64,000 nucleotides of DNA from Gammaproteobacteria bacterium (GTDB taxonomy: Bacteria; Pseudomonadota; Gammaproteobacteria; Eutrophobiales; Eutrophobiaceae): NCBI GenBank assembly GCA_965205405.1, contig OZ242169.1, positions 333,826 to 397,825 of the forward strand. The letters run 5' to 3'. A program made the translations under genes and the position numbers. Below the pieces are notes generated by a model. That model searched no databases and was not told the origin of the DNA. It saw nothing but the letters and a program-made list of their open reading frames with translations. Shown in pieces: positions 24,137 to 39,373 of this stretch (the first letter of the stretch is position 1; each line of letters opens with the position of its first letter).

Positions 24137-24175
24137 ACCTTATAATGGCAGACCTTTTGTCTTCCCAGGCCCGGC

Positions 24176-24898: not shown

Positions 24899-25232
24899 AT
24901 TATTAACCTCTAAAATATTATTGGTAACGCCTGCAAAAACCGCAGACAACAAAAGAAATTCATGATTTAAATTGATAGATGAAGCTCTAGTTGTTCCGAA
25001 AACATATCAACGATAATCCATTTATGCTATTTCGGGAAACAACGAAAAAGCGTGGTGGAACTGGTGACAGTGCTGCCCGTATATGTATATCATATTTTTG
25101 GCGAAGTAATCCAGTATCTGATAGGGTAAGGATACAAGTCAGCGTGTTGAAAAGAGCCGAATGTGACTCCAACCGGGAATGTCAAATACACCAGTCGAGT
25201 TGTTTTATGCGTTGGCGGCAACAATCTGAAAT

Positions 25233-27968
25233 ATGATGGGTTCGAATAATTTAATCATCAAAACCAAACTGTTCCCACCGGCAAACAGGACTGGAGTAAT
25301 AAAACGCGCCAGCCTGAGCAAACTACTGGACACGATCGGTACGAAAAAACTGGCTTTGGTGCATGCGCCTGCCGGCTATGGCAAGACGACTCTGTTGTAT
25401 CAGTGGCATAAGTCTATGTTAGACAACGCTCAAACGACTTGCTGGTTGTCTCTGGATGAGTTGGATGATGATCCGGCAACTTTCGTCAGATATATCCTAT
25501 GCGCGTATCAGGAGGTAGTCGATGACTTTTGGGTGGATGCCGCGAATTGGATGGAAGGTCGATTACAACCTGATATCACTATTGTACTCAATCATATAAT
25601 TAATGAATTGATCAGAATTGATATGCCTATAACATTATTTATAGATGATTATCACCACATCAATTCAGTCGACATCCATCAGTTTATTGAGCGACTCGTT
25701 GACTGGTCTCCGGAGAAATTTTTATTAGTCATCGGCAGCCGTATCGTGCCATCACTGTCTCTGAGTAAATGGCGTGTAAGCGAGAAAATGACTGAGGTGG
25801 ATGTCAGCATGCTTCGATTTAGCAGAGTAGAGGCGAATGCGTTTCTGGAACGCAAGCATAAACTTCAGCTTACTGCAGAGCAGATCGCTGTTATCACTGA
25901 AAAAAGCGAAGGCTGGGCTGCCGGTCTCCAGCTAGTGGCTCTGGTGCTGAAAAACTACGATCAACGTGATGAGTTTATTGCTTCCTTTTCAGGCAATCTT
26001 TATGAGATTGCGGATTATTTAACGAATAATGTATTAATACAACAATCTCAATCCCTGACTGATTTTTTGCTTAGGACTTCTATTCTGTCACGATTTAATG
26101 CGGACATATGCAATTTATTAACTGGGCGAAATGATTCACAAAGTGTCCTGGAACAACTGGAAAATGATGGTTTATTTACATTGCCCCTGGATACACACGG
26201 GCATTGGTACCGGTACCATCATTTATTTCATGATTTCCTCACTGGCAGGCTTCGACGTCTATATCCGCATGAAGTTTTGAATTTATATCATAAAGCGGCA
26301 GGTTGGTTTCGCGCCCAAGGACTCATTAAGGAAGCTGTTGATTACGCACTACTGTCAAACGATTTGGAGATGATAGAGGATATTCATCGGGACGCGATAG
26401 CGATCATGTCATTGATGGGAACCACAGCACAGGTATATACCTGGCTTAGCAATATCCCTGATACTGTCAAAGAAAGATTTCCGCGGCTTCTTATATTGGA
26501 GGGTTTTGCCTTATGCCTGATGAACAGGATCCAGAATGCAGAAATTGTTAATACGCGTATTAACAACGCGCTTACCGAATTAGCTAACGATCCAATTAAT
26601 GTTGCCCCTGAAGAATTACGCTCTCTTAAAGCAGAGGCAACCGTCGTGCCGGCATCCATAGCAGCCATGAAGGATGATAATACGCAGCTATTAGCACTAA
26701 CCGAACAGTTGGATGATAAACCCGTGGATAATCTCATGATAGCAACATTGAATGATCTCAGGGGATATGCACAACTCAGGCATGGTCGCTTTGAGGAAAG
26801 TAAAAAGTTGCTTGATCAAGCGTGGCAGTATTTTTCCATAAATAAACAGTGCTATGGTATGGCCGTTGTGGATGGCTTTGCAGGGATAGTAGATATTCAG
26901 CAGTTAAAGTTTCAAGACGCTTATCGGGTTTTTGAGCGCTCGGAAGAAGCTGCAAAAGATGTTGATGGCGGCAACATCTTTGCACGCGCCCTGGCAAGCA
27001 CGATGCGTGCAACAGTATGTTATGAATGGAATAGAGTCGATGAGGCGCAGAAATTATTAAATTCTAATCTGCTGCTTATCGAAGAAATTGGTCCGCCAAT
27101 TTTTTCTTGTTACGGCTACGTCACACTTTCTCGTTGCTATAGTGCCATAGGCGATTGGGATGCTGCCTATAATGCATTGAACCGATGTCTATTTCGTTCA
27201 AAGCAGTGCATTAGCAACTTGTTTCCTGTCTGGGTTGAAAGAGAGCGATTACTGATTGCCAGGAAAATTCTCGACACCGGAGCTGGATATTCCGATTTTA
27301 CCGGCCACTATTCCTTGGCGTCCGATACAATTCCTGATCTATGGGATATTGGCGATTATTTTGAGCGCGCCAACCAGGTTCGCCTGAGTATTTTAGAGAA
27401 CAAACTCGATAATGCTCAGGGACGGGTTATAAGTTTACGTAAATATGCAGAGCAGCACATGGCTTTTCAGGCTGCTCTTGATAGCCTGCTTCTGGAAGCG
27501 CAGATCCTTAAAAAGCAAGAAGATCATGCACAGGCAGTGAACCTCATACAACAGGCTGTGAAGTTGGCAGAACCGGCCGGATTATTACGTACCTTTATCG
27601 ACGAAGGAGAGATAATCAGAGAATTGTTAGAAGGCTGTTTAAAAAACAAGTCTATTACAATCCAGGTCGCCTCTTACATTGAAGAAATACTGCATGCCTA
27701 TTCCTCTGTAGGAGTTTCTTGTACGGCAACTCACTTCTCGACTAGCCATGTGGATAACCACCCGGTCAGCGTTGAGGCACTGAGTAAACGTGAACTTGAC
27801 GTGTTGCAATTACTATCTGCCGGAAAAACAAATACTGAAATTGCAGAGCAATTATTTATAGCCAAGGCAACCGTGAAATTTCATGTCAGTAATATATTCA
27901 GCAAACTGCATGTCACCAATCGCACCCTTGCCGTGGCTACGGCAAGAAACAGTGGCTTGATAAGTTGA
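25233..27968 (+). CDS. MalT-like STAND ATPase / LuxR-family transcriptional activator
   Basis: A 911-aa ORF with an N-terminal Walker A motif (APAGYGKTT), a helical/TPR middle and a C-terminal LuxR HTH. The coding sequence is visibly AT-rich. Confidence 0.8.
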   Translation: MMGSNNLIIKTKLFPPANRTGVIKRASLSKLLDTIGTKKLALVHAPAGYGKTTLLYQWHKSMLDNAQTTCWLSLDELDDDPATFVRYILCAYQEVVDDFWVDAANWMEGRLQPDITIVLNHIINELIRIDMPITLFIDDYHHINSVDIHQFIERLVDWSPEKFLLVIGSRIVPSLSLSKWRVSEKMTEVDVSMLRFSRVEANAFLERKHKLQLTAEQIAVITEKSEGWAAGLQLVALVLKNYDQRDEFIASFSGNLYEIADYLTNNVLIQQSQSLTDFLLRTSILSRFNADICNLLTGRNDSQSVLEQLENDGLFTLPLDTHGHWYRYHHLFHDFLTGRLRRLYPHEVLNLYHKAAGWFRAQGLIKEAVDYALLSNDLEMIEDIHRDAIAIMSLMGTTAQVYTWLSNIPDTVKERFPRLLILEGFALCLMNRIQNAEIVNTRINNALTELANDPINVAPEELRSLKAEATVVPASIAAMKDDNTQLLALTEQLDDKPVDNLMIATLNDLRGYAQLRHGRFEESKKLLDQAWQYFSINKQCYGMAVVDGFAGIVDIQQLKFQDAYRVFERSEEAAKDVDGGNIFARALASTMRATVCYEWNRVDEAQKLLNSNLLLIEEIGPPIFSCYGYVTLSRCYSAIGDWDAAYNALNRCLFRSKQCISNLFPVWVERERLLIARKILDTGAGYSDFTGHYSLASDTIPDLWDIGDYFERANQVRLSILENKLDNAQGRVISLRKYAEQHMAFQAALDSLLLEAQILKKQEDHAQAVNLIQQAVKLAEPAGLLRTFIDEGEIIRELLEGCLKNKSITIQVASYIEEILHAYSSVGVSCTATHFSTSHVDNHPVSVEALSKRELDVLQLLSAGKTNTEIAEQLFIAKATVKFHVSNIFSKLHVTNRTLAVATARNSGLIS

Positions 27969-28117
27969 AACAGAATCTACACCATCAAAACTATACTTTA
28001 GGTCAGGCAAAAATCTGCATTCCAATATAAAACCGGTCTAATGGTGAGTTGAGTTCTTCACTAACATCATTAGTATTTTTATTATTGAATCTATCGATCA
28101 CTTTTTTATTATGAGCA

Positions 28118-29572
28118 ATGAGTCATCTCGCTTTTCTGAGTGCAACTGAGTTAGCCGGTAAAATCCTGGATAAGGAGATCAGTTCTCTGGAATTGACTGA
28201 TCACTTTATCAACCGCATCGAGAAATTGGACGATGGCATCAATGCCGTTGTGGTCAAGGATTTTGACAGGGCGCTGGCAGCAGCCACAAAGGCAGATAGA
28301 CAGCTTGCTATGGGTGAAATAACAGGGCCGTTACATGGCGTTCCCGTTACTGTCAAGGAGGCTTTTAACGTAGCCGGATTAACAACTACCTGGGGGATCC
28401 CATTTTTAAAAGACAATATTGCCGCTACCGATGCTGAGGTCGTCAAGCGGTTTAAGCAAGCCGGGGCTGTGTTCATGGGTAAGACTAATGTTCCGTGCGG
28501 GTTAGGTGATATTCAAACTTATAACGATATATATGGGGTGACGAATAATCCCTGGGACATTTCATGTTCACCCGGAGGCTCTTCCGGAGGTTCTGCGGCC
28601 GCACTGGCTGCGGGACTTTGTGCTCTGGAGGTTGGTTCCGACATGGCTGGTTCCATCCGTGTGCCTGCGCATTTTTGTGGTCTTTATAGTCACAAAGCGA
28701 CCTGGGGAGTTGTTCCAAATCAGGGCCACGCTCTGCCTGGCGTCATTGCTTCACCGGATCTTGGTGTAGTTGGGCCAATGGCGCGTAGTATAAAGGATCT
28801 AAAACTTGCCATGGATTTGCTTGTTAACGCTCAGCCATTGAATCAGTCGGGGTGGCAACCCGGACTGCCACGTCCAACAAAACACTCACTCAAGGATTAC
28901 AGGGTTGCTATCTGGTCAGATTATAAAACTGCGCCGGTAGATGAGGAGACCATCGCCCGAATTGTGAGTATAGGCGAGATACTCACAAAACTCGGCGTAT
29001 GTGTATCCGATCAGGTATTGCCAGACATTGATTTCAAAAAACATCAGGAAATATTTCTAAACCTGATGTGGTCGCTTACGACTGATGGCGTCACAGACGA
29101 TCAGTATCTTGAGGCCTGTCAGCTTGCTGAATCCATTCCATCCGATGATTTATCTGACTCAGCTATAGCAGCGCGTGCCCGTGTACTCAGTCACCGGGAT
29201 TGGCTTTTTTATAATAATCAACGTGAATTTCTGCGTTATGCATGGCGGGAATTCTTTGGTGAATGGGACATATTGATCTGTCCGGTATTTGCTGTACCTG
29301 CCTTTACACATGACCATAGCCCGATTGAGCAACGCATGCTGACAGTTAATGGTGTTCCTCAAGAATACTTTCAGTCAATGTTTTGGGCAGGAGTGAGCAC
29401 GGTGTCATATCTGCCAAGCACTGTGTTTCCAACCGGGTTATCGCGAAACGGTCTGCCAATCGGTCTCCAGGCTATCAGTGCAGAATACAACGACTACATT
29501 ACGATGGATTTTGTGAACTTGCTGACAAAACAGACAGGTGGTTTTCAGATACCCCCCGGATACGAAACGTGA
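28118..29572 (+). CDS. Amidase signature family enzyme (second paralogue)
   Basis: A 484-aa ORF with GGSSGGSAAALAAG. Confidence 0.85.
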   Translation: MSHLAFLSATELAGKILDKEISSLELTDHFINRIEKLDDGINAVVVKDFDRALAAATKADRQLAMGEITGPLHGVPVTVKEAFNVAGLTTTWGIPFLKDNIAATDAEVVKRFKQAGAVFMGKTNVPCGLGDIQTYNDIYGVTNNPWDISCSPGGSSGGSAAALAAGLCALEVGSDMAGSIRVPAHFCGLYSHKATWGVVPNQGHALPGVIASPDLGVVGPMARSIKDLKLAMDLLVNAQPLNQSGWQPGLPRPTKHSLKDYRVAIWSDYKTAPVDEETIARIVSIGEILTKLGVCVSDQVLPDIDFKKHQEIFLNLMWSLTTDGVTDDQYLEACQLAESIPSDDLSDSAIAARARVLSHRDWLFYNNQREFLRYAWREFFGEWDILICPVFAVPAFTHDHSPIEQRMLTVNGVPQEYFQSMFWAGVSTVSYLPSTVFPTGLSRNGLPIGLQAISAEYNDYITMDFVNLLTKQTGGFQIPPGYET

Positions 29573-29750
29573 TTACCGTTCCTGGGCGAAGCTTTATGAC
29601 AAACCTATACCTACGGCTAGGTAGAAACAATGTTGGTGAAAGAAACTCGCCTTATGGTTGGTTTTTCGATAGGAATTTATTGCTAGTATCTTACTCGTAT
29701 AATTAATTGCCGGAGCTTGGTTTCCGGCGCCCATCAACGGGGGACTATCC

Positions 29751-32240
29751 ATGAATAAGATCTTCAAAGCCGCTTTGAGTTTAGCTTTGATTGGCGTCGT
29801 CGCATCACCGCTTAACGCACAGGTACTGGAAGAAATTATCGTTACCGCGCAGAAACGTGAGCAGAACCTGCAGGACGTACCGATTTCAATACTGGCGATA
29901 ACAGGTGACGATATAAAGGCCGGCGGCTTTTCCGATATGGAGGACCTGGCCAGCTTCGTGCCGAATTTGTTCATGTCGGATTCGCTTGTGGGTCAGAACC
30001 TCGTCATCCGCGGCATTGGCACCACGGTCGCCAATGAGGCGTTTGAACAGGCTGTCGCGCAATTCCACGACGGGGTTTATTACGGTCGCGATAATCTGAG
30101 CCAGAACAGCTTCTTTGACCTGGAACGGGTGGAAGTAATCCGCGGTCCGGCGCCGGTATTTGCCGGACAGAGCGCCACTGCCGGCGCATTGAGTTATATC
30201 AGTCGCCGTCCCGGTGACGAGTGGGATGGGAATATTTCGGCAGCCTACGGCACTGATGAAGAACTCAGCCTGGAAGCCGCCGCCGGTGGCCCGTTGTCGG
30301 ATACGTTCGGTATCCGTGTCTCCGGACGCTATTACGAACTCAACGACGCCGGCTACAAGCATGTGCTGACCGGTAAGGAGTTGGGCACCAAGGAAAACTG
30401 GGGCACGCGGGTTCTCGGCGTGTGGACACCGACGGACGATTTTGAGCTAACATTCAAGTATGAGCATCAGGACGTGCTTCAGATTGGCGTGCCGACTGAA
30501 TATACCCGTTGCGAAACACGACCTGCACTCAGTGCCTCTCATCCCGCTATATCGCCCTTCATAGGCGCACTGTGTGCGCTGGACGCCGCGTACAACGGAA
30601 TCGATTTAAACAGGCTGGACGGCGTGGTCGGCTCCGGCGGCTCGCTGGATGTGAGAGCGGCGATGGATGAGCTCAATGCTGCCAGCGGCGCCGTGTTCGG
30701 CGACCCGAACTACTGGGGCGCTCCTTTCAGCCCGGTTTCCCGCGGTCTTAACAGCGCGCAGATATTCAATGAAGAAGAGCGGCGTGAGCACCAGGTAAAC
30801 GTCGGTCTGCTGGCGTTTGACTGGGATGTCGGCGGCAAAGGTATTGTGATGAATTCCATCACGTCCTACGTGGAATACGACAAACAAGACTTTCTGGACC
30901 CGGATATGAGTACGTTTGCCATTTTTGCCGGTAGACGCACTGAATCCTTCGAGCAGTTCGCGCAGGAGATCCGGTTTACCTCGCCGGAGGATCAACGATT
31001 CTCCTGGATGGTCGGCGCCTATTATCAGGAACATGACCTGACGACGCAGATCGATGTGCATCTGCCATGGCTGTTTGACCTGCCGAATTTCTTCTCCATG
31101 GGCTTTGTTCCGCGCAATCCCGCCCTGGACCCAACGGTGCACAGCGCCATCAGCTTTGGCGGTCCGCTGGTAGAGGATTCCCGCTGGATCTCCGCGTTTT
31201 TCAATACGACGTTTAATGTGACCGATAATATCCGCATCAATGTCGGTGGGCGCTACGTGGACATTGAGAAAGAGGGGACCGAGAACCCACAACTGTCGCT
31301 CCTGCCTATCGGCGCAACTGAATTCGGCCCTGCTGTTCCACTTGGCCCCCCGGTATCGGGTGAAGCCAATGCCAGCGACTTTCTGCCGGAGGTTGGTTTG
31401 CAGTGGGACGTGAGCAACGACATCATGCTCTACGGTAAATATTCCGAGGCGTTGAAGGCCGGCGGTTTTGTAAAGTCACCGCCGGTCACAGGCGGCGCCC
31501 CTGATCCTTTCTCTTACAAACCTGAGAAAGCGGAAGGCTGGGAAGGCGGTATCAAGGCGCTGTTGCTCAATGGCAGACTGGCGCTCAACGTGGCGGGCTT
31601 TTACACCGACTTCAGCGAACTGCAGGTCACTATTTTCAACAATGCGACCGGACAGTTCATCACACAAAACGCCGCCGCTTCACATACTACTGGTGTTGAG
31701 ATCGACGGCCGTTGGGCTGTCACCGATAATTTTACCCTGGGCTTTGCCGGTAACTATACCGAGGCCGAATATGACGAGTACAATGGCGCGCCGTGTAATT
31801 CGTTGGATACCAAGTTGGCAGTGATTGCAGCCATGAACCCGTTTGCCCCATGTTTCATTGATGGCGCCGGAGAGGAGCTGCCGTTCTCACCCGAATGGTC
31901 AGTAAACCTGCAGCCGAACTACCGGATGAGCATCGGTGGTTTTCAGGTCACCGCCGGCGCCAACCTTATATTCAGTGACGGCTATCGCCTGTTCGGTATC
32001 AGCGGCGACCCGCTGGATCAGGTGGATTCCTGGGAGCGTCTTGACCTGCGACTGGCCATTGCCCCACCCGACGGCAACTGGGAAGTCGCTGCTTATGGCC
32101 GCGATGTCACCGATGAACAGCGCCAGCACATGGACGCATTCGAATTCCTGAGCACGAGTCTGGACGTGGTTCACGATGCCAACGGTGTCGGCCGCGAGCG
32201 CGGGGCGCGTTTCGGTGTGCAGTTAAGCTACTCCTTTTAA
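29751..32240 (+). CDS. TonB-dependent outer-membrane receptor
   Basis: An 829-aa ORF with a signal peptide, a TonB box/plug and a C-terminal β-barrel ending in F. Confidence 0.85.
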   Translation: MNKIFKAALSLALIGVVASPLNAQVLEEIIVTAQKREQNLQDVPISILAITGDDIKAGGFSDMEDLASFVPNLFMSDSLVGQNLVIRGIGTTVANEAFEQAVAQFHDGVYYGRDNLSQNSFFDLERVEVIRGPAPVFAGQSATAGALSYISRRPGDEWDGNISAAYGTDEELSLEAAAGGPLSDTFGIRVSGRYYELNDAGYKHVLTGKELGTKENWGTRVLGVWTPTDDFELTFKYEHQDVLQIGVPTEYTRCETRPALSASHPAISPFIGALCALDAAYNGIDLNRLDGVVGSGGSLDVRAAMDELNAASGAVFGDPNYWGAPFSPVSRGLNSAQIFNEEERREHQVNVGLLAFDWDVGGKGIVMNSITSYVEYDKQDFLDPDMSTFAIFAGRRTESFEQFAQEIRFTSPEDQRFSWMVGAYYQEHDLTTQIDVHLPWLFDLPNFFSMGFVPRNPALDPTVHSAISFGGPLVEDSRWISAFFNTTFNVTDNIRINVGGRYVDIEKEGTENPQLSLLPIGATEFGPAVPLGPPVSGEANASDFLPEVGLQWDVSNDIMLYGKYSEALKAGGFVKSPPVTGGAPDPFSYKPEKAEGWEGGIKALLLNGRLALNVAGFYTDFSELQVTIFNNATGQFITQNAAASHTTGVEIDGRWAVTDNFTLGFAGNYTEAEYDEYNGAPCNSLDTKLAVIAAMNPFAPCFIDGAGEELPFSPEWSVNLQPNYRMSIGGFQVTAGANLIFSDGYRLFGISGDPLDQVDSWERLDLRLAIAPPDGNWEVAAYGRDVTDEQRQHMDAFEFLSTSLDVVHDANGVGRERGARFGVQLSYSF

Positions 32241-32247
32241 TATTTTA

Positions 32248-32330
32248 ATATTTGGGGTCAGAGTAAAAATACTCAACTATTATCTGAGGCCATCAGCCAA
32301 CTTGAACGTATTTTTACTCTGACCCCAAAT
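32248..32330. mobile_element. MITE-like element, copy 9 (subfamily A)
   Basis: It lies between the receptor stop codon and the start of the M24 hydrolase gene. Confidence 0.85.
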
Positions 32331-32368
32331 TCACCGGGTTAGTCATTACCACAAGAGGTACATTACAA

Positions 32369-33598
32369 ATGCTTAATAAAGTGGAACGATTCTATGCCCA
32401 GCCCCCCTATGCTCCTTTTCCCAGACCCGAGTTTGAGGACCGAGTACGCCGGCTGAAAGAAGAAATGGCAGCTGCCAGGCTGGATGTGATGGTTATGTGG
32501 GGCGATATTAATATCCGCTATTTTACCGGCTTTTACTCTAACCACTGGCCGCCGGTCACAGTATGTCCCGCGGTACTGTTAATTGCCGTCGATAAGGAAC
32601 CGGTAATGATCGTGCCGGACTTTTTCCAGGGTGTGGTAGAGGGTTATACCTTTGTTGAGGATATTCGCTGCCAACACCATCCGCACGTGACTGCACATCT
32701 CAGGGGGCTGCCAAGAGAGGTGGCGGATGTAGCGAAGGAGCTTATGGGCAGCAGCAAGGGCCGGGTCGGTATCGAAGGCGGCATCAAAGGTGGCATGACC
32801 ATTCCACGGCCAATCAACGATATCGATGAGTTTCGCGCTGCGCTTCCGGACGTGGAGTTTGTCTATGCCGCAGACCAGATCTGGAACGTTAGGATGATCA
32901 AGTCGCTGTTGGAGGTAGAGGCGTTAAAGATCGCCTGTGAAGCTGACGTCAAAGCGTATCACGACCTGATTGCCAATTTTGAGTGGGGCTGGACCGAGAA
33001 AGACGTCGGGCTGTTCGTCCGGCAACAACTCCTCGAATATGCGGATGAATGCAAACCTTGTCTTTGTATGGCCAGCCGCCGCAAGGTATTCATGGCGGAC
33101 ATCCCGGCCTGGGATGAAGGTATTCCACTGATGCCGGGTGATCGCCTGGTATTGGAACCTCTGCCTGAAATCAAAGGTTACTGGGGAAGTTCCGGTCGCA
33201 CCTTTCATATGGGCCCGGCGCCGGAGGAAGAGATTCGCAAGATACAAGTTCTGGACAGTGGCCGGGAAGTTGCCGCGGAAATCACAAAACCGGGTGTTAC
33301 AACCGGTGAGATTATGGATGCGATCAACCAGACATTACAGGATGGCGGTCTTCATTGTTCCCTGGACCAGGGTGGACACGGTGTCGGACTGGACGGTCAG
33401 GAACCTCCAGCGATTGCTCTCGGTGAAAAATTCGTGGTACAGGAAAACATGGTGCTGGCCGTCGAGTGCTGGATGTTTGAAACTGATGAGTTGGGGCACC
33501 ATAGAGTATACGGCGGAGAAGATTATGTGCATGTCACAAAAGACGGTTGTGACCTGTTACCAACTTTCCCGACGGATATCGTCAGTCTGGGTACCTGA
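32369..33598 (+). CDS. M24 family hydrolase (creatinase/prolidase N-terminal domain plus pita-bread fold; creatinase/ectoine-hydrolase-like)
   Basis: A 409-aa ORF with HGVGLDGQEPP and VECWMFE motifs. Confidence 0.7.
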   Translation: MLNKVERFYAQPPYAPFPRPEFEDRVRRLKEEMAAARLDVMVMWGDINIRYFTGFYSNHWPPVTVCPAVLLIAVDKEPVMIVPDFFQGVVEGYTFVEDIRCQHHPHVTAHLRGLPREVADVAKELMGSSKGRVGIEGGIKGGMTIPRPINDIDEFRAALPDVEFVYAADQIWNVRMIKSLLEVEALKIACEADVKAYHDLIANFEWGWTEKDVGLFVRQQLLEYADECKPCLCMASRRKVFMADIPAWDEGIPLMPGDRLVLEPLPEIKGYWGSSGRTFHMGPAPEEEIRKIQVLDSGREVAAEITKPGVTTGEIMDAINQTLQDGGLHCSLDQGGHGVGLDGQEPPAIALGEKFVVQENMVLAVECWMFETDELGHHRVYGGEDYVHVTKDGCDLLPTFPTDIVSLGT

Positions 33599-33634
33599 AA
33601 TACAAGCAGTAATTCAGTAAAAAGAATGTGAACT

Positions 33635-34528
33635 ATGAAAAGAGCCGTATTCGTCGCACCGACTATCCACGAATATTCCGACCCGAATAATCTGCTTGAT
33701 CTGGCCAGAATCACCGAACAGGCGGGCTGGGACGGTTATTTCATTTGTGATCATTTGATTCTGGATCCCGGGGGTTACCTGGCCCTTGCCGACCCCACCG
33801 TAACGCTTGGAGCGATCGCCGCGGTCACAAAGAAGGTCATTATCGGAGCAATGGTCACACCGGTATCCCGCCGGCGACCATGGAAGCTGGCAAAGGAGTT
33901 CGCCAGCCTGGATCAATTATCGGGCGGACGCCTGCGCATTGGAATCGGGTTGGGAGGTCTGGATCAGGAATTTTCGAATTTCGGGGAAGATCCTGATAAG
34001 AAAGTGCTGGCGAGGAAAACAGACGAAGGAGTCGCCATCATGGAAAAACTGCATACGGGAGAAGCCGTAAACTTCGATGGTGAAATGTACCGGATTAAGG
34101 ACGCCAGACTACTCCCGCGTCCAGTGCAACGCCCGCGCATTCCGGTTTGGGTTGCCGCCATGTTACCGGCAAAACCAGGCCAACGCCGGGCCGCGCGTTG
34201 GGACGGTATCATGCCCCACGTAATACCGGCGATTCTTGAAGAAACACAGGACATCTCGGATATAGACCTGCGCGTGATTATGTCTCCCAGCCCGGAACAG
34301 ATTCGGGAGGTGGTTGAGTTTACCTCGGGATTGCGCGACACAGATGAACCATTTGATGTGATCGCCTCTGGTATTACCTACGGACTGGACAGGAGTGAGG
34401 CGCGCAGCAGGTTACAATCCTACCGGGACGCCGGCGCCACCTGGTGGTTCGAATGGCTGGACTGCGGCAGACCGGGAACGTTGGAGCAGGTACGCGAACA
34501 GATTCAGGCTGGTCCACCGGAAGCCTGA
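33635..34528 (+). CDS. LLM-class (luciferase-like) flavin-dependent oxidoreductase
   Basis: A 297-aa TIM-barrel LLM-like sequence. Confidence 0.7.
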   Translation: MKRAVFVAPTIHEYSDPNNLLDLARITEQAGWDGYFICDHLILDPGGYLALADPTVTLGAIAAVTKKVIIGAMVTPVSRRRPWKLAKEFASLDQLSGGRLRIGIGLGGLDQEFSNFGEDPDKKVLARKTDEGVAIMEKLHTGEAVNFDGEMYRIKDARLLPRPVQRPRIPVWVAAMLPAKPGQRRAARWDGIMPHVIPAILEETQDISDIDLRVIMSPSPEQIREVVEFTSGLRDTDEPFDVIASGITYGLDRSEARSRLQSYRDAGATWWFEWLDCGRPGTLEQVREQIQAGPPEA

Positions 34529-34543
34529 GGATGCTGTCTGGTG

Positions 34544-34680
34544 ATATTTGGGGTCAGAGTAAAAAGATATTTGGGGTCAGAGTAAAAATACGGGCAATCC
34601 GGTAGATTGTGTTGCTGTACTATTAAGTATTTTTACTCTGACCCCAAATATCAAGTATTTTTACTCTGACCCCAAATATC
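34544..34680. mobile_element. MITE-like element, copy 10 (subfamily B loop CGGGCAATCCGGTAGATTGTGTTGCTGTAC), with a half-copy on each side
   Basis: The full element spans 34567-34650. Solo TIRs lie at 34544-34565 and 34654-34680. Confidence 0.85.
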
Positions 34681-34719
34681 TATAAGTAACTTTTTCTCTA
34701 CTACTAAAAGGAGATACTC

Positions 34720-35730
34720 ATGCCTGTACTTGCAATGGCAGTTCCGATACCGCCAGGGAAAATAAAAGCGTTGGAGCACCATATAACAGAAGCTGTTCAA
34801 CACGAAGATTTTGAAGAGACGCTAAAGGGTTTTGGCATTTTGCATGAGAGCTGGCATATACAGGAAACACCTCAAGGAGACCTGCTCATCCTGGTGTTTC
34901 AGTCCGATGACCCGTTTTCCATGCTCCAGGAATTCTCACGGTCGGAAAAAGACCTTCCAGTCATGCAAAAGAATTTTCTCCGGGAAACTCTGGGCATTGA
35001 TTTATCTCAACCCCCTCCCGGACCACCTTCAAGACTGATCTTTGAGTGGCCTGGTGCAATAGGAAGTAAAAAAACCATGGGGTGGGAAGTCATCCAGGAT
35101 CTCGTCGTTCCCAAGAGTACGGGTAAGACGATGAGGGTCAACAAGGGCCAGCTTTTTCGTGTCATAGAACATGAAGGGAAACAGGTAGTCGATCTTACTT
35201 TTTTAAACGCACACAATTATAAAGAGCACTTCGCCGGTGAGTATTCCGCCATGCTGAACAGTATGCAGGGAACAGGTGGCTATTATCGACTCACCAGGCT
35301 CTACTCCAAGCCCCCGTATGAGAATGTCATGGCAACCGTCGTCGATGACAAAGTTGGTAGCGGCGCCAGAGGGGGGGAAAGAGCGGGTCATTTCATGATG
35401 TGTCACTGCTCAAATCGATTACTTGAACATCTTGGCCTCCCGGGGACTCGGACTTGCAGCGATAACTTTGCCGATGCCTTCAGAGAGATTGGCTTAGAGC
35501 AGGAAGATACCTATGACGAGACTATCTTCAACGTATGGATGCACTCGTGGCTTGGCGAAGATGGCAGCATGAACTTTGCACGCCCACTTGCCGAAACAGG
35601 CGACTATGTAGACTTTCTGGCGGAGATGGATGTTATTGCCGTTTTATCAGTATGCCCGGATGAAACAAGTCCGTGTAATGATTTTAAAGCCAAAGCCTTA
35701 AGGTTCCAGGTTTTGGAATGGAAGGAATAA
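34720..35730 (+). CDS. DUF1989 (urea carboxylase-associated family) protein, long paralogue
   Basis: A 336-aa ORF whose C-terminal 210 aa are a paralogue of the next ORF (FRVIEHEGKQV...FLNAHNYKE...CPDE). Confidence 0.65.
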   Translation: MPVLAMAVPIPPGKIKALEHHITEAVQHEDFEETLKGFGILHESWHIQETPQGDLLILVFQSDDPFSMLQEFSRSEKDLPVMQKNFLRETLGIDLSQPPPGPPSRLIFEWPGAIGSKKTMGWEVIQDLVVPKSTGKTMRVNKGQLFRVIEHEGKQVVDLTFLNAHNYKEHFAGEYSAMLNSMQGTGGYYRLTRLYSKPPYENVMATVVDDKVGSGARGGERAGHFMMCHCSNRLLEHLGLPGTRTCSDNFADAFREIGLEQEDTYDETIFNVWMHSWLGEDGSMNFARPLAETGDYVDFLAEMDVIAVLSVCPDETSPCNDFKAKALRFQVLEWKE

Positions 35731-35736
35731 GAAACA

Positions 35737-36375
35737 ATGACCTCAAAGGTTATTAATGAATTCGTCATCCCCAAGTGCACTGGCAAGGCCTTCAGGGTCA
35801 ATAAGGGGCAGGTGTTTCGCGTCATAGAACATGAAGGGAAACAAGTGGCCGGCCTCATATTTTTAAACGCACACAATTATAAAGAACAGTTCATGGCCGA
35901 GTTTTCCGGAGGTCTGAATTATTTCCATCCCTCCGGTATAGGTAGTCATTACAGACTTAGTAAGCTCTACTCCAAGGTTCCCTATGAGAACGTGATGTTA
36001 ACTGTTACCGATAACAAAATTGGCGATCATTTCCTGGGGCCTCACTGCACGAGAACGATGATGGATATCTGGAAGGCGCCTGGTCATCGAAGCTGCAGCG
36101 ACAATTTTACTGACGCTCTAAGAGAGTTCGGCCTGGCGCTTGAAGATATCTATAGCCCTAGCGTTTTCAACGCTTTTGCCAATGTCCGTATCGACCCCAA
36201 GGGAGATGGCGCCATTCGCATTGACCCTCCCCGTGCCGAAAAAGACGACTATATAGAGTTTCTGGCTGAGATGGATGTTTTGGTGGCTGCTTCAGTATGC
36301 CCGGATGATAAATCAGCAATGAACGGCCACTCATGCAAAGCCATACAGATCCAGATTTTGGAATCCCAGCAATAA
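35737..36375 (+). CDS. DUF1989 (urea carboxylase-associated family) protein, short paralogue
   Basis: A 212-aa ORF, tandem with the previous gene across a 6-bp gap. Confidence 0.65.
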   Translation: MTSKVINEFVIPKCTGKAFRVNKGQVFRVIEHEGKQVAGLIFLNAHNYKEQFMAEFSGGLNYFHPSGIGSHYRLSKLYSKVPYENVMLTVTDNKIGDHFLGPHCTRTMMDIWKAPGHRSCSDNFTDALREFGLALEDIYSPSVFNAFANVRIDPKGDGAIRIDPPRAEKDDYIEFLAEMDVLVAASVCPDDKSAMNGHSCKAIQIQILESQQ

Positions 36376-36606
36376 ACACCAAGTAAAATCGAACCATTTC
36401 GATTGGATGGCCTTCATGCGTTTGTCATTGCGCCCATCCCTGGGCGCAACCCAACGGGCGGCCTGCGGCCGTGCAAATCGTCTATCCTGACGATTAGTCA
36501 TTGCGCCCACTAATGAGAAATGCAGAGTAAGGGTGCTATACTTTAGCCATGAACTATAATGGGAAATCCAGGGTCATAATGATTACTCGAGTTATGTGAC
36601 TGTTTA

Positions 36607-37958
36607 ATGAAACTTGGCCTATTTCAAATTGGGACGGCATTAGCTTTAATTTCGATCACCTGCGCGCCCTATTCCCAAACTGAGACATCCTTTTCGAAAA
36701 TACCGCAGACGCCGGTCCAATCAGTTCCTATACCCAAGCACAGGTTAATCTTCCCCGGTCCATAGCGGAATACGAACGGGAAATTCAGGCGCGGGAAGCG
36801 GAGCACGGTGTTTATGACCCCGCTACGGGTGAATTTCTATTATCCGTCGGTCTGGTCTACCAAAACGACGGAAAGCATGATGAAGCCGTTGATGCATTCG
36901 CACGCGCCCTGCAAATCAAGCGGGTCAATGAAGGCCTGTACAGTACCAGCCAACTGCTCATTTTGGAACAACTCATCAAAAGCAATATCGCCAGTGCTAA
37001 CTGGGAGGAAGTGGATCAGAACTATCAACAACTGCTATGGATAAACAAGCGCAATTATGATGCCGGCGACCCACGTCTGTTACCCGTCGTCGATACGGTC
37101 GGGCGCTGGAAGCTGAAAGCCTACAAGGAAGACCTGCTGGATAGCAGCGCAATCAGTACTATCGGCGAGTCCGAAAAACTTTTCCGGGATACGATTATTA
37201 TCCTGGAACGCCAGTATGGTGAGAATGATCCAAGGCTGATCAACCCGCTCTACGGCAGGGCATTGACAAACTACCAGTATGCCATTGAAGTTGCCAATAC
37301 CCCGCAGGATGAGTTTCATGGGGCCGGCAGTCCGACCAGGACCCAGGTGATGTGCCGCACCGTTCCGACAGCCAACGGCGGCGCCAGACGTATCTGTAAT
37401 ACCATAAGGGTACCTGACCCAAGCTATTATGCCAGCCAGTCAAGCAACAAGGACTTTGCCCTGGGGCAACGTATCGTTGCAGTCGGCAAGGCGTTGCGAC
37501 ATATTGTGCAAATTCATGAGACTAATCCTGACCTGCCCAGGGATTCCCATGCCAAGGCCCTGGTGCACCTGGGTGACTGGAATCTCCTGAGAGGCAAGAA
37601 AACCACGGCCCACAAGAACTACAAATCCGCTTATCAACTCCTGGCTGATACCGGTGAACACCAGGAAGTAATTGAAGAATTATTCGGTAAGCCGCAGAAT
37701 TTGCCGGCGCTGCGGCTGCCGTTACCCGAAATCGATGACAAACTGGAACAAGAGAAGACAACATCCGTCCTCGCGTCGTTTGACGTATCCAGCACCGGCC
37801 GCGCGAAAAATGTACAGATTCTCGAATCGGAGCCGCCGGATGCTACCTCCGCCCGCAGAAAAGCCAAGAAAACGATCCGCGGGCGCATCTACCGGCCACG
37901 TTTTGAAAACGGCGAACCGGTAAATACAGTAGGTAATAAAATCCGTATAGTGGATTAA
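36607..37958 (+). pseudogene. Lipoprotein-type signal peptide plus TPR-like body plus TonB-C-like C-terminus, interrupted by a frameshift (or a sequencing error)
   Basis: ATG at 36607 opens a reading frame encoding MKLGLFQIGTALALISITC... that stops at 36757. The body reading frame is open from 36684 and encodes coherent protein sequence, but it has no start codon before the TTG at 36963. Confidence 0.5.
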
Positions 37959-37975
37959 CCCAACCCGGGCTAGAC

Positions 37976-39373
37976 ATGAAACAGGCTGATTCCGTGTCGT
38001 TTGCGCGCGTGTTGGCGAGACGAGAAGTACTGGCCCTGTCATTCGGCGCCATGATCGGTTTCAGTTGGGTGATCCTGACCGATAACTGGATTCTCGAGGC
38101 CGGCGTCGGAGGCGCGGTCCTGGCCTTTGCCCTGGGTGGTATCGCTATCTTATTCATCGGTCTGGCATACTCGGAGTTAGCCGCCGCCATGCCGCTGGTG
38201 GGCGGGGAGCATGTTTACAGTTATCGGGCAATGGGAGATCTCGGCTCTTTTATATGCACTTGGGCGATCCTGCTGGGTTACGTATCAGTGGCCGCCTTTG
38301 AGTCTGTCGCCTTTCCGACGATACTGGAAAGCCTGTTGGGCCAAAACAGGGTGATCTACCTGTGGACGGTGTCCGGCTGGGATGTCTACCTGAGCTGGGC
38401 ATTGGTGGGGGTGGCAGGGTCGATAGTCATCGCCTGGATTAATGTCCGCGGAGTAAAACTGACGACACAGGTTCAGACGGCGGTAACAACTGTCATTATC
38501 TTGGCGGGACTGGCGCTGTTTACCGGCGCTCCCCTGAACGGACACCCGAACAATATTCAAACATTTTTCAATAACGGCTTCGCCGGGTTTGCCGGTGTCC
38601 TGGTGTTAGTACCGATCCTGTTCGTGGGTTTTGACGTCATACCACAGGCGGCAGAAGAAATTGATCTCCCCCGTAACACCATCGGACGCCTCTTGATGTT
38701 CTCAGTCATCCTGGCGGTGTTGTTTTACATCTTTGTCATCCTCGCGGTCGGTTTGTGCCTGGACGCCACGGCACTGGCTGCCGCCGACGTGGGAACCGCC
38801 GAGGCCGCTGCCGTTGCCCTGGGTGGGAAGTGGGGAGAATTCCTGCTCCTGCTGGCCGGCCTGGCCGGTATTCTTACCAGTTGGAACGCCTTTGTCGTGG
38901 GCGGCAGCCGTACTATTTACGCCCTGGCCCACGCCAATATGCTGCCCCGTACTTTCGCGGTACTCCACCCGGTCTATAAAACGCCGGTCAACGCCATTTA
39001 TCTCATAACGGTTTTTTGTATCACCGCGCCGTTCTTCGGGCGACCCATACTGTTGTGGCTGCTCAATGCCGGCAGCTTCGGCATCATTATCGCCTATGCA
39101 CTGGTGGCGGTTTCCTGGCTACTCCTGCGCCGGAGCGAACCCGGAATGGAACGACCGTTCCGCGCCGGTAATTCAACCGTCGTCGGCTGGCTGGCCCTGA
39201 TACTCGCCGTGGCCCTGATCACTATTTACCTGCCCGGCATGCCCGCCGCCCTGCTCTGGCCCCATGAATGGATAATCGTCCTCGCCTGGGCAGTCGCCGG
39301 CAGTCTTATGTATTCCCGGACACGCAGTATCTACGGCCCGGCCGACCCGGGCAGGATATTACGCCGCACATGA
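37976..39373 (+). CDS. APC-family amino-acid permease
   Basis: A 465-aa, roughly 12-TMS ORF. Confidence 0.85.
   Translation: MKQADSVSFARVLARREVLALSFGAMIGFSWVILTDNWILEAGVGGAVLAFALGGIAILFIGLAYSELAAAMPLVGGEHVYSYRAMGDLGSFICTWAILLGYVSVAAFESVAFPTILESLLGQNRVIYLWTVSGWDVYLSWALVGVAGSIVIAWINVRGVKLTTQVQTAVTTVIILAGLALFTGAPLNGHPNNIQTFFNNGFAGFAGVLVLVPILFVGFDVIPQAAEEIDLPRNTIGRLLMFSVILAVLFYIFVILAVGLCLDATALAAADVGTAEAAAVALGGKWGEFLLLLAGLAGILTSWNAFVVGGSRTIYALAHANMLPRTFAVLHPVYKTPVNAIYLITVFCITAPFFGRPILLWLLNAGSFGIIIAYALVAVSWLLLRRSEPGMERPFRAGNSTVVGWLALILAVALITIYLPGMPAALLWPHEWIIVLAWAVAGSLMYSRTRSIYGPADPGRILRRT

Follow-up and report, generated by a model that had tools for sequence, protein, structure and literature searches.

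We analyzed 64,000 nucleotides of contig OZ242169.1 from a gammaproteobacterial assembly (hereafter the window) and found a gene cluster that matches no described pathway and has an unusual zinc-enzyme pair at its center. The cluster is conserved in many uncultured bacteria from marine sources and most likely imports and degrades a nitrogen-containing organic compound. We do not regard it as a low-GC island of recent acquisition, and the region probably represents a single, vertically maintained uptake-and-catabolism locus for such a compound.

The cluster occupies seven ORFs, all on the + strand (Table 1), which are closely packed, with gaps of 36 nt between the M24 and LLM genes and 6 nt between the two DUF1989 genes. 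The ORFs have the positions given in the original prediction, and Pfam and NCBIfam searches bore out its domains, namely MalT-like STAND with GerE, Amidase, Plug with TonB barrel, Creatinase_N with Peptidase_M24, Bac_luciferase, and DUF1989 twice. Its view of the genes as one functional unit for the uptake and degradation of a nitrogenous small molecule, in a combination not described before, is still the best reading. The tandem DUF1989 domains were also found, but the sixth ORF (34720-35730, 336 aa) is not an intact DUF1989 gene; it is a 111-aa ABM-fold gene fused to a 217-aa DUF1989 gene, so that the cluster comprises eight genes. The prediction had overlooked that an ABM-fold gene is present, that the two DUF1989 proteins complement each other in their active-site residues, that the metal site of M24 is degenerate and that there is a link to cofactor F420. 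No curated NCBIfam equivalog passed its cut-off for any cluster protein except a generic 'amidase' model. None of the enzymes had a characterised orthologue, every specific NCBIfam match being far under its cut-off, and no curated family or paper was found for the combination of M24, LLM, ABM and DUF1989-A/B with a MalT-type regulator, an amidase and a TonB receptor.

Table 1 Features of the cluster and its surroundings in the window (aa, amino acids; values are E-values).
Feature	Position	Strand	Evidence
MalT-family STAND ATPase / LuxR-type (GerE) transcriptional activator, 911 aa	25233..27968	+	Pfam TPR_MalT 6.6e-28, GerE 3.9e-21, AAA_22/16
Amidase-signature hydrolase, 'type 1' amidase, 484 aa, accessory	28118..29572	+	Pfam Amidase 3.8e-94
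TonB-dependent outer-membrane receptor, 829 aa, signal peptide and plug	29751..32240	+	Pfam Plug, TonB_dep_Rec_b-barrel
MITE/REP-like palindromic repeat copy, receptor/M24 gap, family D1, 88 nt	32247..32334	.	Repeat search
Atypical M24 (creatinase/prolidase-fold) hydrolase, 409 aa, core	32369..33598	+	Pfam Peptidase_M24 1.6e-22, Creatinase_N 7.5e-12
Short luciferase-like (LLM) oxidoreductase, F420-type branch, 297 aa, core	33635..34528	+	Pfam Bac_luciferase 2e-44
Nested or duplicated MITE copies, LLM/ABM gap	34544..34697	.	Repeat search and terminal motif
ABM-fold (dimeric alpha+beta barrel) protein, predicted, 111 aa, core, fused here to DUF1989-A	34720..35052	+	Pfam DUF6176 9.4e-5 (weak)
Fusion junction, TGGTGCAA replacing one G, net +7 nt	35052..35059	+	Alignment to related loci
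DUF1989-A, 217 aa when separate, core	35077..35730	+	Pfam DUF1989 6.9e-29
DUF1989-B, 212 aa, core	35737..36375	+	Pfam DUF1989 1.1e-31
TPR / TonB_C-like putative lipoprotein	36607..37958	+	Kept directly 3' of cluster in L008, L009, L010, L013, 87-97% identity
APC-family amino-acid/amine permease	37976..39373	+	Pfam AA_permease_2 2.7e-37

The core of the cluster, M24 - LLM - ABM-like - DUF1989-A - DUF1989-B, was syntenic in ~20 species-level MAGs, and gene order was kept at amino-acid identities as low as 55-65%. Most of these MAGs are marine Gammaproteobacteria, and the set contains symbionts of sponges and corals. All eight genes were present in seven other species (loci L007-L010, L016, L030 and L031), where regulator orthologues head the cluster and the identity of regulator and amidase goes down to 55%. 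A lack of co-conservation, which would have spoken against the original prediction, was not seen, and chance is a poor explanation for the arrangement. Around half of the core loci lack the regulator, amidase and receptor, and the full set of eight genes is therefore not obligate. The regulator, accessory to the core, was found in 8 of ~22 loci, and a receptor orthologue adjoins the core in 13 other loci. In L014, L015 and L027, a second, unrelated amidase type (26% identity) replaces type 1, showing that two unrelated amidase-signature types were recruited in different lineages. These patterns bear on the reading that the genes have no common function, a siderophore-type receptor, a generic amidase and a peptidase being mere neighbors. 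This would fit the generic public annotation (M24 family metallopeptidase, LLM class flavin-dependent oxidoreductase, TonB-dependent receptor) and the siderophore receptor family that, under its cut-off, is the best subfamily match of the receptor. We consider this reading extremely improbable, given the conserved gene order, an ABM gene confined to this context and an M24 protein without the peptidase metal site.

Among the proteins outside the core, the regulator scored 408 bits against the NCBIfam MalT model, under the cut-off of 537, and matched the MalT structure (PDB 8bob) at 2e-52. The amidase passed the cut-off of PRK06170 (587 vs 503 bits), a family with a generic name, and no signal peptide was found in it. 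Its closest solved structures were the urethanases UMG-SP1-3 and ClbL (~1e-92), and the catalytic Lys (VKEAF) and GGSSGG motifs were visible in the alignment. For the receptor, no specific NCBIfam family was over its cut-off; the best subfamily match, under cut-off, was a siderophore receptor family, and PDB matches were weak, to siderophore receptors and in the plug domain only.

The 111-aa protein is predicted to have an ABM-like fold. Its AF2 model had a pLDDT of 90, and the best fold matches of the model were rhamnose mutarotase, ABM and IsdG, none of which reached E 1e-3. The search for homologues gave no more than 43 proteins, none of them under 59% identity, and the gene was seen in this cluster context only. 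It is separate and TAG-terminated in L001-L003 and all other loci. In the window, the 8-for-1-base change at the junction throws the TAG stop out of frame and thereby fuses the ABM and DUF1989-A genes. The fusion was observed in the window only, with both parts separate in every related contig, and none of the best 120 of 200 matches covered both halves. In locus L005, ~250 nt are inserted at this position, and the inverted ends of the insert contain CTGGTGCAAT, which suggests that the junction change is an excision footprint.

The DUF1989-A and -B proteins are ~48-50% identical, and their orthologues form separate groups as far as Chloroflexi and Actinobacteria. [quoted passage not shown] DUF1989-A keeps all three zinc-binding Cys and the Asp equivalent to D220 (QVVDL), lacks the His of PGHxxC and is variable at the second Asp of CPDD. 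DUF1989-B keeps the three Cys, PGHRSC and CPDD, while its D220 equivalent is Gly or Ser. F327 is replaced by Met in A and Ala in B. Since both proteins keep the 3-Cys site but different, complementary sets of the remaining, second-shell active-site residues, their sequences suggest that A and B form an obligate heteromer, for which CgdAB provides a DUF1989 precedent (PMC11271267).

In the M24 protein, alignment to prolidases showed that the first metal-binding Asp is replaced by Glu or Pro, the second by Ser, and the HE motif by QE, while the His, Glu and Glu ligands are kept. This pattern was constant in 21 orthologues of 76-98% identity, and judging from the alignment the protein lacks a full canonical two-metal site. 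Its top NCBIfam match was the ectoine hydrolase DoeA_2, at 59.8 bits vs a cut-off of 575. In Rhizobium, a distant DUF1989 family likewise adjoins two creatinase-like M24 genes. The top NCBIfam matches of the LLM protein were all F420-dependent families (TIGR03619, 147 bits vs a cut-off of 167, followed by TIGR03560, 03621 and 03557), compared to at most 62 bits for FMN-type families. Consistent with this, loci L087, L022 and L034 carry an FrhB-like gene on one side of the core and CofC-FbiC, CofE and CofD on the other, an adjacency of F420 genes seen in one lineage only.

The original prediction had named guanidino, ureido or cyclic amidine compounds as possible substrates. More specifically, these proteins can be arranged into a guanidino or ureido route, in which A/B would form a ureide by deiminating a substituted guanidine or an amidine, just as CgdAB turns carboxyguanidine into allophanate, the amidase would hydrolyse the ureide or carbamate, and the M24 protein would be a creatinase-like amidinohydrolase. 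Against the CgdAB families UAAP2 and UAAP1, DUF1989-A and -B gave E values of 1.8e-24 to 9.4e-13, the closest solved relatives of the amidase hydrolyse carbamates, the M24 protein combines creatinase/DoeA-type architecture with a degenerate metal site, and the known guanidine pathway likewise joins a DUF1989 heteromer to an amidase-signature hydrolase (PMC11271267). However, the UAAP matches reached 46-87 bits, far under the cut-offs of 206-285, domain and Rfam scans found neither a biotin carboxylase nor a guanidine (ykkC) riboswitch at the cluster, half of the core loci lack the amidase, and the F420-type reductase and ABM protein are left without a role. We hold this route as a tentative possibility. 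The match of the pair to Tdm, in its catalytic DUF1989 domain (68-70 bits in NCBIfam; 2e-12 vs PDB 9q59), is about equal to that to CgdAB, and equivalents of TDM D220 and D367 both exist, divided between A and B. A Tdm-like dealkylation, in which A/B would split an N-oxide or N-alkyl group into an aldehyde and an amine while the LLM protein makes or uses the oxidised intermediate, is nevertheless unlikely. The Tdm family cut-off is 1100 bits, F327 is not conserved, and no GcvT/THF domain or other formaldehyde-handling partner was found. In addition, LLM proteins of the F420 type normally act as reductases or dehydrogenases, not as N-oxygenases.

Outside the marine clusters, the DUF1989-A/B pair alone reaches Chloroflexi and Actinobacteria in a patchy distribution across phyla. 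There the pair (55-69% identity) adjoins three-subunit xanthine-dehydrogenase-family Mo hydroxylases, MBL-fold proteins, a nitroreductase, a flavin reductase and UbiD. In L011, whose DUF1989-B is 88% identical, it adjoins a tannase/feruloyl esterase and the hydroquinone 1,2-dioxygenase PnpCD, and L015 and L027 also carry an aromatic-type FAD hydroxylase and VOC/glyoxalase-fold genes. Such neighbors speak against the catabolic reading as framed for guanidino or ureido compounds and suggest (hetero)aromatic substrates instead. The amidase and M24 protein would then free an amine from an amide conjugate, A/B would hydrolyse an exocyclic amine, imine or quinone-imine at a cytidine deaminase-like zinc site, and the ABM and LLM proteins would carry out quinol/quinone or dihydro-heteroaromatic redox chemistry. 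Quinol and anthrone oxygenases belong to the ABM fold, and the authors of the TDM study compared the 3-Cys zinc site to that of cytidine deaminases (PMC13619132). However, no ring-cleaving dioxygenase or Mo hydroxylase is encoded in the window's cluster, and the M24 enzyme is without precedent in such pathways. Because the neighbors change between lineages, guilt by association is weak here, and we regard deamination of an aromatic amine or N-heterocycle as doubtful.

Uptake and catabolism of a nitrogen-containing compound, the preferred reading, can be laid out in steps. The sequences show the gene content, the synteny, the patterns of active-site residues and, in one lineage, the adjacency of F420 genes, and the model shows the ABM-like fold; from family membership we infer the catalytic roles, the order of all steps and the identity of the substrate. 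The MalT-type STAND activator would sense the compound or a derivative and switch on the downstream genes. The TonB-dependent receptor would carry the compound across the outer membrane, and an inner-membrane carrier would import it. No dedicated inner-membrane transporter conserved with the cluster was found in this species. The nearby APC permease is a candidate for this step in this strain; it is strain-variable, since L003 and L009 have it and L001 and L002 carry other genes in its place. In other lineages the carrier may be of the MFS type, with an ATG22-like MFS gene beside the core in 5 loci. The TPR/TonB_C-like lipoprotein is possibly accessory to the receptor; its gene encodes 446 aa in sister strains, and 11 nt inserted at 36685-36695 shift its frame here. 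Once the compound is in the cytoplasm, the amidase-signature enzyme would strip an acyl, carbamoyl or amide group, and the M24 hydrolase, creatinase- or ectoine hydrolase-like rather than peptidase-like, would cut an amidine-, guanidine- or amide-type C-N bond. The F420-type LLM oxidoreductase would perform a redox step, and the ABM-fold protein may be an isomerase, a cofactor-free oxidase or an accessory subunit. As a heteromeric 3-Cys zinc enzyme, DUF1989-A/B would make the key C-N cleavage, most likely a hydrolytic deimination or deamination that frees ammonia, as in the carboxyguanidine deiminase CgdAB.

The original prediction had taken the region for a horizontally acquired lower-GC island with MITE copies between its genes. 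Low GC was found in the regulator (0.436, z -2.8 relative to the 41 other window genes) and the amidase (0.482, GC3 z -2.0), and five of the seven ORFs were ordinary: the receptor, M24 and LLM genes had GC contents of 0.53-0.56, at or over the window mean (0.52), and the DUF1989 genes were mildly low (0.47-0.48). The low GC and GC3 of the regulator recur in its orthologues from five other species, although the rest of the cluster in these species follows the GC content of the respective genome. Recent transfer is therefore unsupported. MITE copies do lie in two of the gaps. Their terminal motif GGGGTCAGWGTAAAA occurs 27 times in the window vs 0 expected, and the MITEs are a genome-wide repeat family, unspecific to the cluster. 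The copies in the LLM/ABM gap also gave a match to a plant miRNA in Rfam, which was spurious (40 bits vs a gathering score of 144). Joint arrival of the genes by recent horizontal transfer, perhaps with incomplete integration into host metabolism, would agree with the two AT-rich genes, with the patchiness of the A/B pair across phyla and with a downstream region that varies among strains and includes an IS element in L003. This is very unlikely, however, because the downstream TPR/TonB_C, Amt and M50 synteny is shared by three of these five species (L008-L010), no tRNA, integrase or flanking direct repeats were found at the cluster borders, and the host-lineage MITE family has colonised the cluster, with a copy in the same receptor/M24 gap in L009 and L013.

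Among known systems, the guanidine carboxylase pathway consists of guanidine carboxylase, CgdAB and the amidase-signature enzyme allophanate hydrolase, with which CgdAB acts. The window cluster resembles it in having adjacent DUF1989 paralogues, an expected heteromer and an amidase-signature hydrolase in a putative locus for the catabolism of a nitrogen-rich compound. It differs in the missing carboxylase and riboswitch and the low UAAP scores, and adds the M24, F420-type LLM and ABM-fold proteins, the TonB receptor and the MalT-type activator. Tdm (DUF1989-like, DUF1989 and GcvT; PDB 9Q59) likewise joins two DUF1989-type modules, one of them degenerate, and the cluster shares its 3-Cys zinc site in both A and B and its two Asp residues, one per paralogue. 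Unlike in Tdm, A and B are separate polypeptides, both with the Cys triad.

Creatinase, the ectoine hydrolase DoeA and the DMSP lyase DddP share with the M24 protein the Creatinase_N and M24 'pita-bread' architecture, in which the two-metal site is missing or only partly kept, and act on small nitrogen or sulfur osmolytes, not peptides. The M24 protein scored only 19-60 bits against these families (cut-offs 575-613), the DoeB partner is absent, and its clade has a ligand pattern of its own (E/P, S, H, E, E). As in the MalT regulon, a STAND ATPase with a MalT-type TPR sensor and a LuxR-type DNA-binding domain heads a probable uptake-and-degradation locus, although the regulator is no MalT orthologue and the enzymes are not carbohydrate-active. 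As in TonB-receptor-linked catabolic loci of marine Gammaproteobacteria, the receptor would be the specific importer. The homarine (homABCDER) operon requires the FAD-binding HomA, HomB and the aldehyde dehydrogenase HomD (PMC13236597), which the window cluster does not encode; it is set apart by this published description, not by sequence. The homarine and trigonelline (tgn) operons, which serve marine N-heterocyclic osmolytes, resemble the cluster in being conserved in marine bacteria and directed at nitrogen-containing compounds, as is proposed for the cluster, and the hom operon is described as including HomC, a hydrolase that resembles a peptidase, and a pair of proteins for flavin-dependent ring opening (PMC13236597).

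The cluster consists of a regulator, an amidase, a TonB-dependent receptor, a creatinase-like M24 protein, a luciferase-like oxidoreductase (LLM), a gene for a dimeric alpha+beta barrel protein (the ABM gene), and two DUF1989 genes (A and B). The seven ORFs of the original prediction have exactly the coordinates reported, their domains match those it named, and all lie on the + strand. In public databases, the proteins of the 3.47-Mb source contig carry only generic names.

Coordinates of the cluster genes and neighboring features, in window positions.
Feature	Position	Strand	Length
Upstream catabolic set	13294-19758		
Flavin reductase	15039-15593		
Arms of inverted repeat TTTTGCCACAGAGGACACAGAGATCACAGAG	15606-15636 / 15814-15844		31 nt
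Upstream amidase-signature enzyme	18304-19758		
Junction lacking the second receptor	19759-19935		
MITE copy at that junction	19772-19857		
MalT-family STAND/LuxR regulator	25233-27968	+	911 aa
Amidase-signature enzyme	28118-29572	+	484 aa
TonB-dependent receptor	29751-32240	+	829 aa
MITE/REP-like repeat, receptor/M24 gap	32247-32334		88 nt
Creatinase_N + Peptidase_M24 protein	32369-33598	+	409 aa
LLM	33635-34528	+	297 aa
MITE/REP-like repeat, nested or duplicated copies, LLM/next-gene gap	34544-34697		
DUF1989 ORF, fusion	34720-35730	+	336 aa
Extra bases at fusion site	35052-35059		
DUF1989-B	35737-36375	+	212 aa
Second repeat (TGTCATTGCGCCCATCCCTGGGCGCAACCCAACGGGCGGCCTGCGGCCGTGCAAATCGTCTATCCTGACGATT)	36423-36500		~73 nt
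TPR/TonB_C-like putative lipoprotein gene	36607-37958		
Insertion ACATCCTTTTC	36685-36695		11 nt
APC permease, candidate carrier	37976-39373		
Strain-variable segment	39649-44000		
ORF without Pfam match	39649-40155		168 aa
Other MITE elements, examples	941-1028, 6534-6621, 22082-22169, 46634-46721, 61275-61362		

Two tandem DUF1989 ORFs had been proposed, and both do encode DUF1989, but the first is an in-frame fusion of the ABM gene with DUF1989-A that occurs in this window only. The corresponding DNA of near-identical metagenome contigs contains two genes: one for a 111-aa protein, closed by TAG, and then one for a DUF1989 protein of 217 aa. The window has TGGTGCAA instead of a single G, which puts the TAG stop out of frame. 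No match spanned both halves of the fusion among the best 120 of the 200 homologues found. In the sister contig L005 (L numbers denote related or sister contigs and loci from other genomes), an element of ~250 nt is inserted at the exact fusion site (about 2712-2960), with inverted ends …GCCCGGATATTGCACCAG / CTGGTGCAATATCCGGGC…. Since these ends contain CTGGTGCAAT, the extra bases in the window look like a footprint left when a second, small mobile element was excised.

To examine the conservation of the cluster, we ran a DUF1989-B profile against GTDB species, each represented by one genome, and recovered 31 loci with 56-91% identity, all from MAGs. Most belonged to uncultured Gammaproteobacteria, among them bins from corals, sponges, and Tara Oceans as well as Halieaceae, Halioglobus, and Luminiphilus, and the remainder to a few Chloroflexi and Actinomycetes. 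We placed no weight on the drop in identity from 56% to 33% among relatives of DUF1989-B, which the peptide patterns chosen for the scan may have produced artificially. Comparison of each window protein with these loci by tblastn, together with ORF clustering, showed that the M24, LLM, ABM, A, and B genes were syntenic in ~20 loci. The receptor adjoined this core in 13 loci, and the full order from regulator through amidase and receptor to core was found in seven (L007-L010, L016, L030, and L031); the Luminiphilus regulator and amidase shared just 55% identity with those of the window. Seven loci had the A/B pair without the rest of the core. The cluster genes are thus co-conserved, as the original prediction required, and the conserved unit is the five-gene core, with the regulator, amidase, and receptor as frequent accessories. 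Other recurrent accessories were an ATG22-like MFS carrier (five loci), MBL-fold, VOC, and Amidohydro_2 proteins, and, in L014, L015, and L027, another amidase-signature type that is unrelated to the cluster amidase of the window (26% identity).

The cluster had also been described as a lower-GC island, with horizontal acquisition suggested from the AT-richness of the regulator and amidase genes. Low GC was confined to these two of the seven ORFs: the 41 other window genes averaged 0.522 (sd 0.031), compared with 0.436 for the regulator and 0.482 (GC3 0.445) for the amidase. Values were 0.53-0.56 for the receptor, M24, and LLM and 0.47-0.48 for the two DUF1989 genes. The low GC and GC3 of the regulator recurred in its orthologues from five other species, for example 0.45 versus 0.56 for the receptor in L008 and 0.52 versus 0.60 in L009, and the overall GC of the cluster tracked that of each host. 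With amino acid identity at 78-87%, equilibrium would be expected at synonymous sites, and the regulator bias is therefore gene-intrinsic or ancient. Our search found no tRNA, no integrase bordered the cluster in the flanks examined, and the locus with its downstream synteny (TPR/TonB_C lipoprotein, Amt, M50) was shared with L008-L010. A tRNA-linked island was thus rejected. The atypical composition throughout and the mobility genes or tRNA at the borders that would mark a recent genomic island were not seen, and recent transfer is not supported; it is plausible that the A/B pair was transferred from one phylum to another at an earlier time.

MITE copies had been reported between several cluster genes. 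An 88-nt palindromic MITE/REP-like repeat was indeed present in two of the gaps, but it belongs to a genome-wide family whose ends read TTTGGGGTCAGAGTAAAAATAC … GTATTTTTACTCTGACCCCAAA. The window has ~13 elements and 27 matches to the terminal motif (0 expected). The family was also found in related species (L008-L010, L013, and L016), sometimes at the same intergenic site, and host-lineage MITEs inside the cluster occupied the same gap in L009 and L013, which likewise speaks against recent transfer. No riboswitch was matched in Rfam at E <=1 in 22000-40500 or at the gathering score in the whole window; the only output was spurious plant-miRNA matches to MITE hairpins. Promoter and terminator scans yielded counts no different from those of shuffled sequence.

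The flanks of the cluster varied among strains. The TPR/TonB_C-like gene was conserved 3' of the cluster in L008-L010 and L013 and was intact (446 aa) in L002 and L003; in the window, its frame is shifted by an insertion directly behind the signal peptide, marking either a pseudogene or an assembly error. The second repeat, between DUF1989-B and this gene, was found once in the window and in L002 and twice in L003 (10687-10830). Further downstream, the strain-variable segment contained differing combinations of an MBL gene, the permease, an IS element, and DNA methyltransferase genes, and its 168-aa ORF in the window had the lowest GC of the window genes (0.42; GC3 0.36). Upstream, between a FadB-like gene and the upstream amidase, sister strains encoded a second receptor of the TonB-dependent type (L090 4416-6869, L091 4395-6848), 817 aa long and sharing 27% identity with that of the cluster. 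It is absent from the window, where the junction carries a MITE copy, and the difference is a strain-level deletion or insertion. The upstream catabolic set, which is separate from the cluster, began with a two-component hydroxylase of the HpaB type and its divergently oriented flavin reductase, followed by MFS, APH-family kinase, and amidase-signature genes. This amidase was rejected as a paralogue of the cluster amidase, with only 26% identity and a place in a separate MFS/APH unit. The flavin reductase, paired divergently with the hydroxylase and 18 kb away, was likewise rejected as a partner of the LLM and is probably unrelated. An inverted repeat (97% complementary, arms 177 nt apart) separated the flavin reductase gene from the MFS gene.

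DUF1989 proteins are numerous and mostly annotated as 'urea carboxylase-associated', and to our knowledge their known activities are just two, those of carboxyguanidine deiminase (CgdAB) and TMAO demethylase (Tdm). DUF1989 is the sole domain of both A and B (212-217 aa), which were ~48-50% identical. Their orthologues formed two separate groups out to Actinobacteria, and the duplication is therefore old. We aligned both proteins to the Paracoccus TMAO demethylase, which has a zinc site of three cysteines (C285, C301, and C365) and requires D220 for activity (PMC13619132). The 3-Cys:Zn site was kept, with C104, C120, and C188 of B aligning to C285, C301, and C365 and the same cysteines present in A. 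The other residues were divided between the two proteins: the D220 position was kept in A (QVVDL) and was Gly or Ser in B, the His of PGHxxC was lost in A and kept in B (PGHRSC), and D367 (Tdm numbering) in CPDD was variable in A and kept in B. The F327 position was Met in A and Ala in B. The tandem pair was conserved across phyla. The complementary residues, the invariable adjacency of the two genes, and the precedent of CgdAB, a heteromeric DUF1989 enzyme (PMC11271267), argue for a putative obligate heteromer of A and B. Against UAAP1 and UAAP2 (TIGR03425 and TIGR03424; cut-offs 284.7 and 205.95), the CgdAB families, A scored 86.5 and 46.4 bits and B 66.5 and 47.9 bits, and both scored 68-70 bits against NCBIfam TmaoDeMthMsil (cut-off 1100). 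Since these scores are far under the cut-offs, A and B form a separate clade. A distant DUF1989 family of Rhizobium (27-32% identity) also adjoins two creatinase-like M24 genes, together with an ABC transporter (L043 6607-10615; similar in L057, L059, L068, L071, L077, L079, and L081), so the partnership of M24 and DUF1989 recurs independently of this clade and may be general.

Of the prolidase metal ligands, the M24 protein retained the His and both Glu, but the second Asp was Ser, the first was Glu or Pro, and the HE motif was QE. A canonical M24B Xaa-Pro peptidase was rejected because its set of ligands (D, D, H, E, E, plus HE) is incomplete here, and since the altered pattern was conserved in 21 orthologues, a standard two-metal peptidase role is unlikely on sequence grounds. 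The protein resembles the non-peptidase branch (creatinase, DoeA, DddP) and is an orthologue of none; it matched PDB creatinase 1chm at E 2.5e-5, and its NCBIfam scores for DoeA_2 (59.8 bits, cut-off 575) and EutD (26.5 bits, cut-off 613) were far too low for DoeA, EutD, or creatinase orthology. The best NCBIfam match of the LLM was TIGR03619 (F420-dependent, Rv2161c type) at 147.2 bits, under the cut-off of 166.9, and the next-best matches were F420 families too. Genes for F420 biosynthesis stood beside the orthologous core with its F420-type LLM in one marine gammaproteobacterial lineage only (L087, L022, and L034), where the core lay between an FrhB-like gene plus MarR on one side and Amidohydro_2, MFS, CofC-FbiC, CofE, and CofD genes on the other. 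In L087, these flanks spanned 3951-5420 (FrhB/FdhB-like side) and 13385-18309 (side of the CofC-FbiC fusion, CofE, and CofD). No F420 genes (cofC/D/E, fbiC) were found in the 64-kb window or at the other loci examined. The ABM protein had 43 detectable homologues, each at least 59% identical, and its structural model (pLDDT 90) was a ferredoxin-like alpha+beta barrel. The nearest folds were sugar mutarotases, ABM oxygenases, and IsdG, none significant, so the fold search assigned the protein no further than to the generic superfamily of dimeric alpha+beta barrels.

Among the accessory proteins, the regulator is a MalT-family STAND activator by architecture (NOD ATPase, winged helix, MalT-type TPR sensor, and LuxR/GerE helix-turn-helix), with Pfam matches to AAA_22/16, TPR_MalT, and GerE, WHD_MalT recorded for an identical protein, and a match to PDB MalT 8bob at 2.3e-52. 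It was rejected as a MalT equivalog (408 versus a cut-off of 537). The amidase had the catalytic Lys and the GGSSGG motif, and its nearest solved relatives were metagenomic urethanases and ClbL. Solved structures gave the receptor only weak plug-domain matches, without indicating specificity. Inspection of N-terminal sequences found no signal peptide in any cluster enzyme, so an inner-membrane carrier is needed; the APC permease downstream, present in some strains only, is a candidate.

The best-supported reading of these sequences is a substrate-inducible locus that would import and catabolize a nitrogen-containing organic compound, with the zinc enzyme of A and B predicted to perform the key C-N cleavage. 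The strong synteny supports the undescribed uptake-and-degradation route of the original prediction, its function being inferential. Two kinds of substrate compete. A guanidino or ureido compound would match the precedent of CgdAB plus amidase and suit the creatinase-like M24 protein, but would leave the LLM and ABM protein without a role. Deamination of a (hetero)aromatic amine or imine would give both of these redox roles, though the M24 enzyme is without precedent in such a route. The neighbors of the A/B pair elsewhere suit this second route, and those outside marine Gammaproteobacteria hint at (hetero)aromatic substrates: in Chloroflexi and Actinobacteria (L088, L089, L093, and L094), the A/B pair adjoined three-subunit Mo hydroxylases of the xanthine dehydrogenase family, along with MBL-fold proteins, nitroreductase, flavin reductase, and UbiD. 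In L011, it lay beside a tannase/feruloyl esterase and a hydroquinone 1,2-dioxygenase. The neighbors in L015 and L027 included a FAD hydroxylase and VOC genes.

Because uncultured marine Gammaproteobacteria and the symbionts of sponges and corals commonly carry the locus, its substrate is likely to be a dissolved organic nitrogen compound of ecological relevance. We tentatively propose, while thinking it somewhat improbable in full, that the core is a new, possibly F420-dependent route mineralizing a widespread compound of this kind in abundant uncultured marine Gammaproteobacteria (sponge/coral symbionts, pelagic Halieaceae, and Luminiphilus), in which the A/B heteromer would give the DUF1989 zinc fold a third, new catalytic function, with the ABM protein as its dedicated partner. 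As a distinct cross-phylum pair with split active-site residues, the A/B clade would help explain DUF1989 heteromers and would probably add a third DUF1989 reaction. The F420 genes around the core in one lineage hint at an unrecognized deazaflavin role in marine Proteobacteria, and the MalT-type regulator and receptor provide a direct handle for testing induction by compounds. The ecological spread is broad, and the chemistry, as predicted, is potentially new.

The combination had been put forward as not matching a described pathway, and this held: NCBIfam release 20 (June 2026) had no equivalog for any core protein, and full-text searches of the literature on DUF1989, DUF6176, carboxyguanidine deiminase, and the enzyme combinations found nothing describing this locus. 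The guanidine carboxylase pathway was rejected because A and B scored under the UAAP1 and UAAP2 cut-offs, no carboxylase domain that could stand for its adjacent biotin-dependent (urea/guanidine) carboxylase was found in any ORF of 7.5-40 kb or in the annotated flanks of sister contigs, and its ykkC-type guanidine riboswitch had no counterpart at the cluster in Rfam. The homABCDER operon is defined by a FAD-binding HomA, HomB, a peptidase-like HomC, and an aldehyde dehydrogenase HomD within 10 kb (PMC13236597); neither a FAD-binding protein nor an aldehyde dehydrogenase was in or next to the cluster. A homarine or trigonelline operon was rejected on gene content. Tdm shares its 3-Cys:Zn site with both A and B. 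However, Tdm has a C-terminal GcvT/THF-binding domain that is absent from A and B, and D220, F327, and D367 in one polypeptide, whereas here the D220 equivalent is in A only and the conserved D367 equivalent in B only; with scores also far under the family cut-off, the cluster DUF1989 proteins were rejected as Tdm. A Tdm-like dealkylation by A and B is less likely as well, given the missing GcvT partner and the loss of F327. Compared with these systems, the locus is a predicted catabolic operon using a putative DUF1989 heteromer and is new by its combination of genes.
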